From: a virus
Lineage: Duplodnaviria; Caudoviricetes
Length of the DNA stretch: 43,369 bases
Strand: one strand, 5' to 3'
Virus record (IMG/VR): IMGVR_UViG_3300010359_000004
Coordinates: 1 to 43,369 of that record
Each line of letters begins with the position of its first letter. Within the stretch, counting starts at the first letter, position 1. A model generated the notes under the pieces. The model made no database searches. It had not been told where the DNA came from and saw nothing but the letters and a program-made list of their open reading frames with translations. The translations under genes and the position numbers were made by a program. This document shows, one piece after another, positions 3,720 through 30,258 of this stretch.

Positions 3720-3741
3720 CGAGTTTTCAGGATGTGAAAAG
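3720..3741 (-). promoter_or_regulatory. Dyad motif CTTTTCACATCCTGAAAACTCG, copy 1
   Basis: Intergenic. On the minus strand it is flanked by TTGACT (3745-3740) and TACAAT (3719-3714) with a 20-nt spacer. Confidence 0.75.
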
Positions 3742-15953: not shown

Positions 15954-16543
15954 TAGCGATTAGTAGGATCACTAGGAGGCAGAGTATCAGGATCAGGATC
16001 GCCACGATTATCGAGAGGTCGTACGACATTATGCGGTGTAACATCCACGGCCTCGCTCTCACGGATGGCGTCAGCTATGAGCTCGGCGCCAGCCGGATCG
16101 ATTGCGTGGGTATGATGAGACTCGACCTCGATACGCTTAGGTGCCTTACCATAGGCACGATCGAGGATATCCTGCGCCGTGACGATGGCCAGCGAAGCTG
16201 CTTTGATCTGAGTCTCTTCCTTGATGTTACCATTGGATCGACGGTTGTTCATGTCGTCCATTGTTTGCTCTTGCACGTCTAGGGCTTTGTGGGCCATGCC
16301 CTCGAGGCGTTGATTCATGCGCTGGGCGGATGAGCGCATGTCCTCGACAAACGTCGCTTGTAAAGCGAGCATATGAGCCTGCACCCGGGGCTTTTGTAAG
16401 TGGTAATTGATGGCCGCGGAGGACATGTTCAAGAAGCGTCCGATAGCGTCGTGACTACATCCAGCCACGGCCATCATAGCGATACGTAACTCGAGGGGTG
16501 AGAGTGATGTATTAGGTTGGCCAGTAGGGCGTCCAATAGACAT
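15953..16543 (-). CDS. terS: Terminase small subunit (N-terminal HTH)
   Basis: LuxR-like HTH (LSPLELRIAMM...SHDAIGRFLNMS) and AQDILDRAYGK motif; coupled to TerL. Confidence 0.7.
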   Translation of the reverse strand: MSIGRPTGQPNTSLSPLELRIAMMAVAGCSHDAIGRFLNMSSAAINYHLQKPRVQAHMLALQATFVEDMRSSAQRMNQRLEGMAHKALDVQEQTMDDMNNRRSNGNIKEETQIKAASLAIVTAQDILDRAYGKAPKRIEVESHHTHAIDPAGAELIADAIRESEAVDVTPHNVVRPLDNRGDPDPDTLPPSDPTNR

Positions 16544-16772
16544 AACGGGTGTCCTCGGGTAGAAAGAGCCGGGATCTCACTTGCAGATCGCATGCCAATT
16601 ATCGGGGGTGTATGTTCAGCGAATGCCGTCTGCGGCATGGCCGTCTGCGGCCAAGCGAAGCGAGCTCTCTTAGAGTTTTGGGGAAAATTTCTCGCGATTT
16701 GAGAAAGGGCACCGCTAGAAATCTAGCAAGAAAAAAAGGGGGGATGCCCCCTTAGCCTTTGCCTTGGCGTTG

Positions 16773-16960
16773 GCCATATCTTGGCGATATGGCATTTCGC
16801 ATGGCTTCGAGTATGGCGTCGTCCATTGTTGCGCTATGAGTTAGTTAGGAACTATGGCATACTCTATCTCACTGGCCAACTTTGTACTATGCCATACTCT
16901 ACGACTATGGCATACTATTAAGGCATCGCCTCTGGCCGATGCCATACTCGATGCCATACC
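16773..16960. repeat. Cluster of short ATGCCATA/TATGGCAT repeats in the divergent intergenic region
   Basis: Copies near 16788, 16812, 16853, 16888, 16906, 16939 and 16951, e.g. ACTATGGCATACTCT, ACTATGCCATACTCT, GATGCCATACTCGATGCCATACC. Confidence 0.6.
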
Positions 16961-17249
16961 CTTCGCCTTGTGTTCTGCCTGTAGTGCAGCGGTATCCGAT
17001 CGGGCATATTTGCCACGGTCCGGCCCGTGCCAGCCCCGCGATTCCCCTGTATTTCCGGGACGTTAGCCGCATCTCCCTGGCACGCTGGTTGCTACCATAG
17101 GGCTACGGTGGCGGTTGATGGGCGGGCGGGCCGGGGAGATCGGCCCCTAGATCCGCGCAAGATCTAGCGACATATCAGCGTCATGTACGACGCCATGCAG
17201 ACACACGTAGATCGGCGGATCTACAATGGTATGAAACACAGCATGGCAT

Positions 17250-17444
17250 GTGGCGTGGTGGCAAGATCGCACGGATCTTAGCACGCTAGCAAAGGAGCTA
17301 GATATGCGAAAGATGCCGCTAACATTGCAGCAAGCAATTGTGATCTACGGCTGGGATGATATCCTAGAACAAATGTCCGAAGATACTAAGGACGAATTCA
17401 GGAAGATTCGGTTCCAGGCTCGCAAGCCCGTTTTCATCCGATAA
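17250..17444 (+). CDS. Early hypothetical protein (P-x-x-L-x-x-A-x-x-x-Y-G family)
   Basis: PLTLQQAIVIYG; alternative ATG ~17303 with AAGGAG SD. Confidence 0.55.
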   Translation: MAWWQDRTDLSTLAKELDMRKMPLTLQQAIVIYGWDDILEQMSEDTKDEFRKIRFQARKPVFIR

Positions 17445-17492
17445 CCCTAACAAACTAATTTCCGTGCGTGCTAAGATTCGTGCGATCTTGTA

Positions 17493-17538
17493 TGGTAGAT
17501 CCCTTGGATCTTGGCTGGCATGAGATTTCAGCAGATGA
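17493..17538 (+). repeat. Left arm of ~46-bp inverted repeat
   Basis: TGGTAGATCCCTTGGATCTTGGCTGGC-ATGA-GATTTCAGC-AGATGA is complementary to 17819-17864. Confidence 0.85.
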
Positions 17539-17564
17539 AATCTAAAAGAAGGAAAACAACGATC

Positions 17565-17810
17565 ATGCCAAAGAAGATCACAATCGAGGCGCACACCAAG
17601 TCTGGAGAACGGGGATTCGTAGAGAAAGAATATCCGCTCTCACTGGACGAAGCTGTCAAGATGTACGGAGAGCTGGAGGTTTTCAAGGGTTTCTTGCGGG
17701 ATCGCGTCATCATCGATCAGCGGGAAGCTCGGCCGGTTGCCACGAAGGAGGGTGAGGTGGAGAAGCCCAAGAAGCGGCAGTCTGTCTTCGATAGGTTGCA
17801 GAGCAGCTAA
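17565..17810 (+). CDS. Early hypothetical protein, paralogue of 26465-26752
   Basis: 81 aa from ATG 17565; PLSLDEAVKMYGELEVFKGFLRDRVIIDQREAR. Confidence 0.7.
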   Translation: MPKKITIEAHTKSGERGFVEKEYPLSLDEAVKMYGELEVFKGFLRDRVIIDQREARPVATKEGEVEKPKKRQSVFDRLQSS

Positions 17811-17818
17811 CAACAAAC

Positions 17819-17864
17819 TCATCTAGCTGAAATCCAAGCCAGCTAAGATCCAAGGGATCTATCA
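17819..17864 (+). repeat. Right arm of ~46-bp inverted repeat
   Basis: TCATCT-A-GCTGAAATC-CAA-GCCAGCTAAGATCCAAGGGATCTATCA. Confidence 0.85.
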
Positions 17865-17866
17865 GG

Positions 17867-18018
17867 GGTAGATTAGACTGTAGCCGGTCTAGCTAACCGG
17901 AAATCTATCGTACACGGAAAGTGGGGAGCGATAAGCTAAGATCCAACACCGTGTGGGCTAATCAGATAGACAGGATCGCATGGCGAGGCGATCATTCTAA
18001 GATAAGCTCTAATCTACC
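17867..18018 (+). ncRNA. Unrecognised structured RNA, copy 1
   Basis: Closed by GGTAGATTAGA/TCTAATCTACC. Shares conserved blocks and covarying stems with 30084-30258. Confidence 0.72.
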
Positions 18019-18045
18019 TACAAATCGCACGGGAAAGGAGTGCGA

Positions 18046-18333
18046 ATGGCAGACCGGACGATGAGCTATGAAGAAATCTTGGCTCGCCGTGAGAAACGTA
18101 AACGCGAAGAAATCGCGATGGCAACTCAGCGGCCCAAGATTCCAAACTCAAAACCGGAAGCGCTAACGATCATGATTCTTCAATGGTGCATAGATAGCAT
18201 CTATGAAGAATGGCGTGCGCGAGAATTAGAGAAAGCGCAAGCCACAAAGATTGTTCTGCCGCCCAAAGGACCGCCAAGGCGTCGGGGTGGTAGAAAGAAT
18301 ACAGTGTTCGAGCAGCTTGGTATAAAGCCGTGA
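18046..18333 (+). CDS. Early hypothetical basic protein
   Basis: AAGGAG SD before ATG 18046; C-terminal RKNTVFEQLGIKP. Confidence 0.65.
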   Translation: MADRTMSYEEILARREKRKREEIAMATQRPKIPNSKPEALTIMILQWCIDSIYEEWRARELEKAQATKIVLPPKGPPRRRGGRKNTVFEQLGIKP

Positions 18334-18404
18334 GAGCCTGTATCCCGTGGGTGATCTTGCAAGCTATCGCAATCGCGATCATCATAGCATCTCACTGGAG
18401 GTAG
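18330..18404 (+). CDS. Possible 24-aa hydrophobic peptide
   Basis: GTGA overlap; MRACIPWVILQAIAIAIIIASHWR. Confidence 0.3.
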   Translation: MRACIPWVILQAIAIAIIIASHWR

Positions 18405-18414
18405 ATGCAAGCGG

Positions 18415-18440
18415 TCTCGGGGGCTGAAAAGCCCCCGAGA
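18415..18440 (+). terminator. GC-rich 11-bp hairpin with GAAA tetraloop
   Basis: TCTCGGGGGCT-GAAA-AGCCCCCGAGA; no U-tract, so a terminator role is uncertain. Confidence 0.4.
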
Positions 18441-18659
18441 GCGGTAGCTAAGATGGTCCTGCCGCAATTGTTGCCAACATGCGGGGGGCCGGGGTGTGCC
18501 CAGCTTGTTGAACAGTTTAATCTACAACTTAACTACATGAAAGCCGGGGTGTTAGAACGCTAAATGAGGGCAAATGTGCGAATGAGCTACCTAATTCTAG
18601 CATTGGCACGAATTCTGCAAGTGAGGTTGGGCAGGTTTACATGCTGGACCTAGTAACTG

Positions 18660-18839
18660 TGGTTAGGGATGTTCTGCGGGTGCATCCGAGTCGCGGGGGA
18701 AGCTGCGATTGGGCGTTTCGAACCTCCCGCCGACCAAACTAGAGGATACTTAGAATATAGAAGATATATATATATGACTTTAGTTTAGAACTCGCTTCCA
18801 TACCCCTAGAAGATCCCTAACCAAAGCCTCTAACCAAAG
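18660..18839. other. Candidate replication origin / control region
   Basis: (AT)6 at 18764-18775 inside the inverted repeat TGGTTAGGGAT (18660) / ATCCCTAACCA (18813); direct repeat CTAACCAAAG at 18817 and 18830. Confidence 0.35.
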
Positions 18840-18858
18840 TTTTTAGGAGGGCCACAAG

Positions 18859-19536
18859 ATGATCCTGGTCTACTCATCCGAAGATGGCTGGCGTGCTGTC
18901 GAGATACTTGAAGGTGAGGATTACTACCTCGGCACAATAACGTCACCCCGGTCGTTTCCCCACGCGTTATTCGGTGACCTCGAGTCCTACTACACCAAGA
19001 CTCGCGAGGGCTGCTGGCGCTGGAAAGGAATCATCCATCGACGCAAGGGCCGCGACGGCATGATCTACACACCTTATCATTACACGCCAATCGGAGCTCC
19101 ATATCCACTACAAACGCCGGCTCGCCAACTATTCCTAGCTCGCAGCCTAAACATAGATCCATCATGCTTTCCTCGACGCCTCAAGATCGGTACGCTCTGT
19201 GAAGGTTTCGCCTGCGTAAACCCCGAACATACGATCCCGTATACCTACTTCGCTCGCACCAAGGTCGGCACAATAGCGCCATCCTCGAAGACCGACGAGG
19301 AGATTCGCGATAAGTATCAAGCCGAACTCAATGCCATGATACGTGGCGAAACATCAGAGAACCAGGGCCGCCGACTAGTCGAGGAAAGCGCCAAGCTTAT
19401 TGACAACGTACTCTCCAAGCTCTCTAGCTCCGAGGATTCAAAGAAACGTTTAGCCTCCATGCCTGATCTACCTAAACCAGAACCAGAGCCCGAAGGTCCT
19501 ACAACTATTGACCAACTACTCAAGGGTATAAAGTGA
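18859..19536 (+). CDS. His-Me finger (HNH-like) domain protein, probably degenerate
   Basis: GCWRWKG and LCEGFACVNPEH motifs; AGGAGG SD. Confidence 0.6.
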   Translation: MILVYSSEDGWRAVEILEGEDYYLGTITSPRSFPHALFGDLESYYTKTREGCWRWKGIIHRRKGRDGMIYTPYHYTPIGAPYPLQTPARQLFLARSLNIDPSCFPRRLKIGTLCEGFACVNPEHTIPYTYFARTKVGTIAPSSKTDEEIRDKYQAELNAMIRGETSENQGRRLVEESAKLIDNVLSKLSSSEDSKKRLASMPDLPKPEPEPEGPTTIDQLLKGIK

Positions 19537-26393: not shown

Positions 26394-26464
26394 TAGAACC
26401 TGCATACAGGTGTAAGGCAACACGCGCGGGGTATGCACCGCGTCCAACAATGAAAGGTTCAGCA

Positions 26465-26752
26465 ATGCCCACACTCGAGATTCCGGAGAAGGACAAGGCG
26501 GAGGTTCGCACCTGCCCGATCGAGGTTTCCACCAAGGTCAACGGAGAGAAGAAGGAGACCACCATCGAGCGCCCCCTCCCGTATCGCCTCGTCGATGCGA
26601 TCGCCATCTACGGCGACAAGGAGGTGTTCAAGCGGTTCATCCAGTCGCTGGTGATCTCGCTCCAGGCGGAGGCCCGCAGCGAGCTGCAGGCCGAGTCCGG
26701 CGAGGCCGCTCCTCGCGTCCGTGCCAAGTACCTGGAGGAGTTGGGGCTCTGA
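26465..26752 (+). CDS. Hypothetical protein, paralogue of 17565-17810
   Basis: PYRLVDAIAIYGDKEVFKRFIQSLVISLQAEAR; visibly G/C-rich third codon positions. Confidence 0.75.
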   Translation: MPTLEIPEKDKAEVRTCPIEVSTKVNGEKKETTIERPLPYRLVDAIAIYGDKEVFKRFIQSLVISLQAEARSELQAESGEAAPRVRAKYLEELGL

Positions 26753-29925: not shown

Positions 29926-30095
29926 CAAGATCCGACATCGATCAACTTATCACCAACGCGGCTCAAGGTATCAACCGGGTTCTCTGCGAGCCTGAGCTGG
30001 AGACGCCTGAGGAAGTTCAGCTTGCGTATCTAGCGTCCATTGCTAGCTCATTGCTGGCAATCGCAGGTCTCATGTTCGAATCCGGTAAGAAGTAG
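29922..30095 (+). CDS. Hypothetical protein (57 aa, absent from ORF track)
   Basis: ATGA overlap; MTRSDIDQLITNAAQGINRV...SIASSLLAIAGLMFESGKK. Confidence 0.55.
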   Translation: MTRSDIDQLITNAAQGINRVLCEPELETPEEVQLAYLASIASSLLAIAGLMFESGKK

Positions 30096-30258
30096 CCGGC
30101 TTGGCCAGCCGGAAATCCATCGTGCTTACGTAGTAATGGAGGGAAGAGCTGTTGTGAGACAGTGAGACTTCCCTGTGAAGTGAACCGTAGTGGGCTAATC
30201 AGATGGACGCGGGAGCATGGCGAGGCTCCCCTTCACTATGACTGAGATCATACTTACC
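30084..30258 (+). ncRNA. Unrecognised structured RNA, copy 2
   Basis: Closed by GGTAAG/CTTACC; same conserved blocks and stems as 17867-18018, with compensatory changes. Confidence 0.72.

Follow-up and report, generated by a model that had tools for sequence, protein, structure and literature searches.

Abutting gene-enclosing stems on a putative single transcript of a tailed phage: candidates for RNase III-type processing

What is the function of a long duplex whose two arms enclose an entire small gene of a phage? We address this question for the 43,369-base genome of an uncultured tailed phage (the whole stretch analysed, hereafter the window), in which positions 17493-17519 pair with 17838-17864 over 27 contiguous bp around an 81-aa ORF. 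The original prediction, made from the sequence alone, had suggested an RNase III-type stem that excises or circularises the message and frees the 5' end of a non-coding RNA, or else an end-pairing translational switch, both in preference to a DNA inverton. Our leading reading, to which we assign a probability of roughly 0.55, is that the duplex belongs to a set of RNase III-type processing stems that would split one sigma-54-type transcript into end-clamped single-gene units.

The ORFs of the window include matches to terminase, portal and capsid, as well as replication-type genes (PolA with a UDG domain, a primase and a Sak4-like protein) and GroES; no tRNA or tmRNA was found in the window. 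The minus strand carries the structural genes, and the plus strand carries a small-gene block, at the beginning of which the stems lie, plus the replication genes. The label "early" that had been given to the 81-aa gene thus describes its position only. The phage is present in soil metagenomes according to a search of sequencing runs, and none of the runs listed was an RNA run containing it. For comparison we used eight relatives, namely the metagenome loci fetched via alignment of the 81-aa protein, with the window's own contig (L057) excluded from all counts, plus the viral contig L003. This contig was the sole match in the alignment search of viral contigs, and among the 53 loci returned by a junction-pattern search of viral contigs it alone carried an array of such stems. 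Genome contigs contained neither a relative of the 81-aa protein nor a match to the RNA pattern. One further candidate relative, L065, was dropped, as its match to the RNA pattern consisted of a short word only.

The duplex around the 81-aa gene and its array

The duplex, here called stem B, is a real and conserved structure. As had been predicted, its core of 27 bp includes two G-U pairs on the plus strand; on the minus strand the longest unbroken run is 17. The core is the longest unbroken long-range helix in the 43-kb window, and its helix score is 26, whereas the top-scoring helices of 20 equally large order-3 Markov genomes reach 14.5-19.5. Beyond the core, the pairing continues through an A.A mismatch, 2 bp, a 1-nt bulge, 9 bp, a second 1-nt bulge and 6 bp, in agreement with the extension foreseen, which brings the total to 44 bp (near the "~46" first given) at -75.6 kcal/mol on the plus strand versus -68.3 on the minus strand. 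The fold of positions 17440-17920 has a z-score of -6.0, and none of 100 shuffles was equally stable. The ribosome-binding site and the ORF do lie in the loop (Table 1). The duplex also ends 1-2 nt before the next element, but that element is the left arm of a further stem and not the RNA, whose core begins at 17880.

Table 1. Positions of the stems, their cargo and associated elements in the window
Feature	Positions	Strand	Remarks
Sigma-54-type promoter match	16582-16597	-	Ahead of packaging genes
Sigma-54-type (-24/-12) promoter match	17078-17093	+	Upstream of array; likely transcript start; in 8/8 relatives
Left arm, stem A	17261-17286	+	Pairs with 17466-17491; kept in the 7 relatives having a separate slot A
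46-aa ORF, stem A cargo	17304-17444	+	P-x-x-L-x-x-A-x-x-x-Y-G motif common to the 81-aa protein
Right arm, stem A	17466-17491	+	Partner of 17261-17286
Left arm, stem B	17493-17538	+	Core 17493-17519; AGATC-N5-GATCT dyad 17497-17511; extension 17521-17538
Local hairpin	17523-17543		TTTCA-N5-TGAAA dyad 17526-17540; predicted in nascent RNA, displaced in full fold
Shine-Dalgarno region, 81-aa gene	17548-17554	+	Outside duplex, within loop
81-aa ORF, stem B cargo	17565-17810	+	Function-unassigned family; paralog of 100-aa gene 26450-26752
Right arm, stem B	17819-17864	+	Extension 17819-17836; core 17838-17864
Left arm, stem C	17866-17877	+	12 bp, at most 14 past a bulge; 1-2 nt after stem B
Structured non-coding RNA, copy 1	17880-17993	+	Slot C cargo in the window genome only
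Right arm, stem C	18008-18019	+	Partner of 17866-17877
Left arm, weak stem D	18024-18034	+	Partial copy of left arm A
95-aa ORF, final gene of array	18046-18333	+	Bracketed by weak stem D
Right arm, stem D	18343-18361	+	Weak with its own left arm, better with left arm A
Sigma-54-type promoter match	18604-18619	+	Downstream of array
Structured RNA, copy 2	30092-30230	+	Outside array; homolog in G001, G002 and G003

Stem B is one unit of an abutting array that consists of A (around a 46-aa gene), B (the 81-aa gene), C (the RNA) and a weak stem D. Stem A, which is absent from the original prediction, ends 1 nt upstream of stem B and is equally strong (26 bp with 2 G-U, helix score 25). Ten of the 12 junctions between stems measure 0-3 nt, and the other two hold a hairpin of 51-53 nt. 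Each of the four arms of A and B contains an AGATY-N5-RATCT dyad, which matches nowhere else in the window; since GATC is not enriched genome-wide (observed/expected 0.97), the motif is local to the arms. In the predicted fold of the putative 1,356-nt transcript, stems A, B and C form with probabilities of 0.99-1.0, and D is not dominant. Indeed, right arm D pairs more stably with left arm A than with its own left arm in all eight loci that hold both (17255-17277 with 18341-18367 in the window; 14 perfect bp in L064), and the resulting clamp around the whole array is an alternative that does not dominate the full fold. Given the core motif that the 46-aa cargo has in common with the 81-aa protein, and the resemblance of arm D to arm A, we conclude that the array has expanded partly via duplication. 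An A/C-rich linker, CTAACAA(A)C, recurs immediately ahead of right arms, in many cases at the stop codon (17446-17459 and 17808-17818 in the window; also in L003, L062 and L063), and could be an unstructured spacer or a protein site.

Conserved pairing and exchangeable cargo

To see how the array varies among related phages, we compared the arms and what they enclose. Stem B is kept in all eight relatives, that is, in each of the nine sequences with the window counted; over 26 pairs and nine sequences, 97.4% of the 234 cells are paired, compared with 25-49% for control arms slid out of register, and none of 500 shuffles reached such pairing. Two-sided changes occur at 9 of the 26 pairs, a count that is inflated by the relatedness of the sequences and to which L064 alone contributes several. 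In the extension of stem B as well, complementarity is kept while the sequence varies. The covariation that had been proposed as a check is therefore present.

The strand on which the pairing is kept can be judged from the wobble pairs. Read on the plus strand, the internal non-Watson-Crick cells of 21 stems comprise 28 G-U versus 3 A-C. Counted as distinct events, which depend on hand-set anchors and related sequences, they amount to 12 versus 3 (one-sided p = 0.018), and to 9 versus 6 (p = 0.30) if three modules are anchored otherwise, which mis-anchors them. The plus-strand duplex is the stabler one in 9 of 9 B stems and in 20 of all 21. The wobble bias shows single-stranded structure of the transcribed strand, and by itself it does not separate RNA from single-stranded DNA. 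Two mutational processes can produce similar patterns: template-switch correction of inverted repeats could mimic covariation, and a C-to-T bias on the non-template strand could mimic the wobble bias. Taken together, the covariation and the wobble bias support the earlier view that selection acts on pairing of the transcribed strand, at the RNA level rather than through a DNA inverton.

One position stands apart. The first base of the inner GATCT is in a non-Watson-Crick pair in 14 of the 17 A and B stems (12 G-U and 2 C-U, with G-C in the remaining 3, among them the window's own stem B). A soft pair kept for so long argues against repeated inversion or plain copying from arm to arm. An inverton is the least credible of the readings considered, notwithstanding inverted repeats with an internal dyad that surround a whole gene: repeated inversion should have erased the mismatch, the gene has the same orientation in all nine arrays (a small sample), and no recombinase occurs among the 75 ORF translations, where a host enzyme could substitute. 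The proposed search for inversion gave no sign of it either, as no strand-changing joint was seen in three contigs, a weak result because contigs drop rare forms; the single joint in the contigs of sequencing runs X1 and X2 belonged to a relative's contig, and neither an inversion joint nor a circle joint was among them.

The cargo, in contrast to the arms, is exchanged. In slot A, nearly constant arms enclose five kinds of cargo, namely ORFs of 46, 49, 45 and 51 aa and a non-coding hairpin of 72-73 nt. L064 has a single module in which A-type outer arms surround the homolog of the 81-aa gene itself, L003 has one extra module, and hybrid arms occur in slot A2 of L003 and in L064. Slot C is occupied in L003 by a 125-aa ORF; L062 has an ORF of roughly 130 codons there, and L059 shows the beginning of a similar one. 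Four relatives lack the slot, and in L064 its place is taken by a short hairpin. The array is absent from the more distant phages G002 and G003, though both have the RNA, the protein paralog and sigma-54-type promoters. Where the slot A cargo is the non-coding hairpin (L058:643-715, L059 and L060), the whole module is an irregular hairpin of about 125 nt.

This exchange raises the possibility that the arms act mainly at the DNA level, as recombination anchors, as single-strand fold-back sites of a PeSL- or integron-like kind, or as sites for a dimeric protein at the AGATC-N5-GATCT dyad. Cargo that varies within constant arms, modules gained or lost whole, the hybrid arms and the restriction of the dyad to the four arms of A and B are all in keeping with such a role; the phage proteins include an exonuclease and a Sak4-like annealing protein, and single-stranded DNA tolerates G.T too. 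We nevertheless regard it as unlikely. Exchange by homology needs direct repeats between modules, whereas the conserved feature is the private complementarity of one arm with its partner; the arms do not move together with their cargo, and the favoured strand is the transcribed one. A scan of the 75 ORF translations, which included a Pfam search, revealed no integrase, HUH transposase, recombinase, ligase, RNase III or reverse transcriptase. Within the RNase III-type reading, the shared arm sequence probably doubles as homology for swapping cargo.

Proposed processing of one putative transcript

Processing of this type depends on both arms of each stem lying on the same RNA. Exactly three strict matches to the sigma-54-type (-24/-12) consensus occur in the window, where 0.26 would be expected; all three lie in the control region, they are conserved in the relatives, and G002 and G003 have such matches in pairs. 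Sigma-70-like matches occur at chance level, and there is one weak terminator-like match, within right arm A. Both arms are most likely co-transcribed, because one match lies at 17078, none lies within the array and the next is found only beyond it. A literature search on phages with sigma-54 promoters returned nothing specific. A phage driven by sigma-54 would need an activator, and none was identified.

On the proposed route, one transcript would start from the promoter at 17078, and each stem would form on it, closing off one small gene or RNA. The left arm of stem B would first fold into a transient hairpin, to be displaced by the right arm once the gene has been transcribed. An RNase III-type enzyme of the host would likely cut both strands of each stem, yielding single-gene messages with paired ends. 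In stem A the predicted cuts lie after 17275 and 17478. In stem B the cuts would fall near the middle of the core, with the best fit after 17508 and 17850 and an alternative after 17514 and 17844, and the roughly 30 bp left after cutting would clamp the 81-aa message and shield both of its ends from exonucleases.

How well do the stems suit such an enzyme? The cores of A and B measure 25-31 bp, slightly longer than the RNase III footprint of about 22 bp (PMC6212723) and similar in length to the Aquifex pre-rRNA stems of about 33 and 44 bp (PMC3074117). Stems C (12-14 bp) and D (about 7-14 bp) fall below this length and are too short for a canonical double cut. For every register we computed a score from the pair counts that Table S4 of PMC6212723 gives for 85 double-cut sites of E. 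coli, and we applied the cut-off of -25.5 from that paper. All 17 A and B stems pass with this E. coli pair matrix, which may not suit the enzyme of the host. In 16 of the 17 the best register places positions 11 and 12 as the central pairs (register 12), with the soft position between the two cuts; this register has A-U or U-A at D and G-C at J' in all 17 stems, and A-U or U-A at D' in 16. The preference partly reflects where the 24-pair window fits, and the matrix score comes mostly from pairing. All 17 stems also clear the cut-off in registers 10, 11 and 14, and register 18 is preferred by 10 of the 17 if only the central 12 pairs are scored. With the pair order shuffled (3000 trials), the score is equalled in 37% of trials for stem A and in 5.2% for stem B. 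By length and pairing, the A and B stems are thus competent RNase III substrates under this scoring model, with an E. coli signature that hardly beats shuffles.

The same results bear on the reading that the stems form on RNA and are never cut, and that they insulate the folding of each cistron, block exonuclease or Rho, or present AGAUC/GAUCU, either to a protein that binds it or as a decoy that occupies dsRNA-binding enzymes of the host. We hold this tentatively, as a minor possibility. The pairing evidence fits it equally well, the sequence signature of RNase III does not rise significantly above shuffles, AGAUY:RAUCU pairs also close short hairpins that contain no gene, and in rRNA the 16S leader-trailer helix is required even without RNase III (PMC10250234). 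On the other side, a bacterium with RNase III would probably cut near-perfect duplexes that clear the E. coli cut-off, and the core length is uniform and near the footprint of the enzyme.

RNase III does not explain the AGATC-N5-GATCT dyad, which has an odd spacer and a centre 3.5 bp off register 12. One may therefore imagine an undescribed expression-and-capture system, in which a factor reading the AGAUC-N5-GAUCU duplex would excise the cargo as an RNA either clamped at its ends or covalently closed, with the arms also serving as anchors for new cargo, an idea that we consider speculative and rather improbable.

Could the clamped ends be ligated after cutting to give circular messages, as had been suggested at the outset? 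An ATP-dependent RNA ligase could join 5'-phosphate and 3'-hydroxyl ends, and the archaeal bulge-helix-bulge consists of two 3-nt bulges flanking a 4-bp helix. In the array, the duplex would keep the 5' and 3' ends close, but no match to RNA ligase was found in the 75 ORF translations, the bulge-helix-bulge is absent, with unbulged cores in the 21 stems inspected, and a 2-nt overhang on a rigid duplex would make a poor substrate for ligation. RNase III does leave a 5'-phosphate and a 3'-hydroxyl (PMC3074117). We judge this outcome very unlikely.

The remaining suggestion, a translational switch like that of icaR or of type I toxin mRNAs, draws on the exchange of structures in the model folds, where the nascent 5' hairpin goes from P = 1.0 to P = 0.0 in the full fold and is replaced by the long-range helix. 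The Shine-Dalgarno region, however, pairs with the 3' arm in none of nine modules and lies 11-113 nt past the helix, and its predicted accessibility shifts in no consistent direction between nascent and full folds. In icaR, by contrast, the 3'-UTR pairs with the Shine-Dalgarno itself (PMC3868564). We therefore find a switch highly improbable.

If the RNase III-type reading is correct, the array combines features known separately from other systems. Leader-trailer helices of rRNA consist of complementary flanks, more than 25 bp long, that loop out the 16S and 23S units (PMC10250234, PMC3074117). The array resembles them in having several looped-out units per transcript and flanks that covary while their sequence is free; it differs in that what is looped out is a small protein gene, a hairpin or a non-coding RNA, that the stems abut at 0-3 nt, that the cargo is exchangeable and the AGATC-N5-GATCT dyad shared, and that the cutting is here predicted. 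In T7, host RNase III splits a polycistronic transcript and protects the messages (PMC8708148, PMC6938266), a purpose like the one proposed here. The T7 site R1.1, however, is a local 49-nt stem cut on one strand (same sources), whereas the strands of the array lie 180-430 nt apart with a gene between them, and both message ends would remain paired. T4-type PeSL cassettes are likewise repeated intergenic elements that bracket small non-essential genes gained, lost and replaced, but they occur as direct repeats, each with a sigma-70 promoter and a terminator of its own (PMC2839356), whereas the arms of the array are inverted and have no promoter per module. In the icaR mRNA of S. aureus, both message ends pair to form an RNase III substrate, as is predicted for the array; that helix is short, covers the Shine-Dalgarno and represses (PMC3868564), unlike the phage helix of 27-44 bp, which leaves the Shine-Dalgarno free in 9 of 9. 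Our literature search, outside which most subscription papers lay, found no description of gene-enclosing stems in phage messages.

Should the stems be cut in this way, the phage would have borrowed the design of rRNA operons for protein genes, obtaining many end-paired messages from one promoter, and accessory genes could be swapped without new promoters or terminators. This would be a simple and testable means of mRNA stabilisation in bacteria and a usable part for multi-gene expression. The clade makes a good test case, because its nine versions reveal the fixed positions, the site of the soft pair and the range of cargo, from gene to structured RNA to bare hairpin.

The structured RNA, the local hairpin and neighbouring elements

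The RNA that follows stem B in the window contains four covarying helices, judged from five sequences (both window copies, L001:3001-3125, L002 and L085), and a conserved terminal loop AWGGCGAG. A candidate pseudoknot is 96% paired with zero two-sided changes and is therefore unproven. No Rfam family reached its gathering score in the window, and positions 16500-18900 gave chance-level matches only. In a by-eye comparison with the layouts of hammerhead, pistol, twister and HDV-like ribozymes, none fitted.

The idea that stem B serves to free the 5' end of this RNA is not supported. The RNA follows stem B in none of the eight relatives (two of which offer only 301 and 357 nt downstream), it has a stem of its own, and it starts 15 nt past the duplex; a cut in the middle of stem B would leave about 30 nt before the RNA core. 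The copy near 30092 is the conserved one, with counterparts in G001-G003, and copy 1 thus looks like cargo that slot C acquired recently.

The competing hairpin noticed in the left arm is present, but it is predicted to be transient, and its TTTCA-N5-TGAAA dyad belongs to a family dispersed over the genome. There are six such dyads in the window (at 3725, 11943, 17526, 20375, 26374 and 35291); five of the six have an ACTC flank and read in the direction of the gene, most of them just after a stop codon. G001 has five copies, and G002 and G003 have none. Because the hairpin is a member of this family and the module-B copy is reversed with respect to the others in both the window and G001, it may double as a DNA site. 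The family as a whole could act as operator, enhancer or RNA hairpin.

For the 81-aa protein we found 25 close homologs, and it is a paralog of the product of the 100-aa gene (hhalign probability 97, E 7e-11). It had no Pfam or PHROG match and no usable match in the protein atlas, and its predicted model (pLDDT 77) gave no fold match in the PDB at E <= 0.001.

Several further elements lie close to the array. Between the divergent promoters, positions 16801-16957 contain short direct and inverted repeats of the ATGGCATAC/ATGCCATAC type, with a 25-bp inverted repeat, which are candidates for a genome end, a packaging site or an origin. Between the promoter and stem A, a conserved leader block (ACATAT...TGTACGAC; 17171-17196 and in relatives) has short hairpins on its flanks, frequently with AGATC/GATCT as the closing pairs. 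Past the second sigma-54-type promoter, the leader contains a 25-nt inverted repeat, 18657-18681 with 18802-18826, around 120 nt, and L003 has an 18-bp stem at the place matching 18657-18826. Finally, a conserved non-coding block follows the last gene of the array (18364-18530), in which a covarying 9-bp stem surrounds a GGAGGT hairpin and a variable hairpin; the stem is followed by an invariant G-rich run, and the block is possibly another RNA module.
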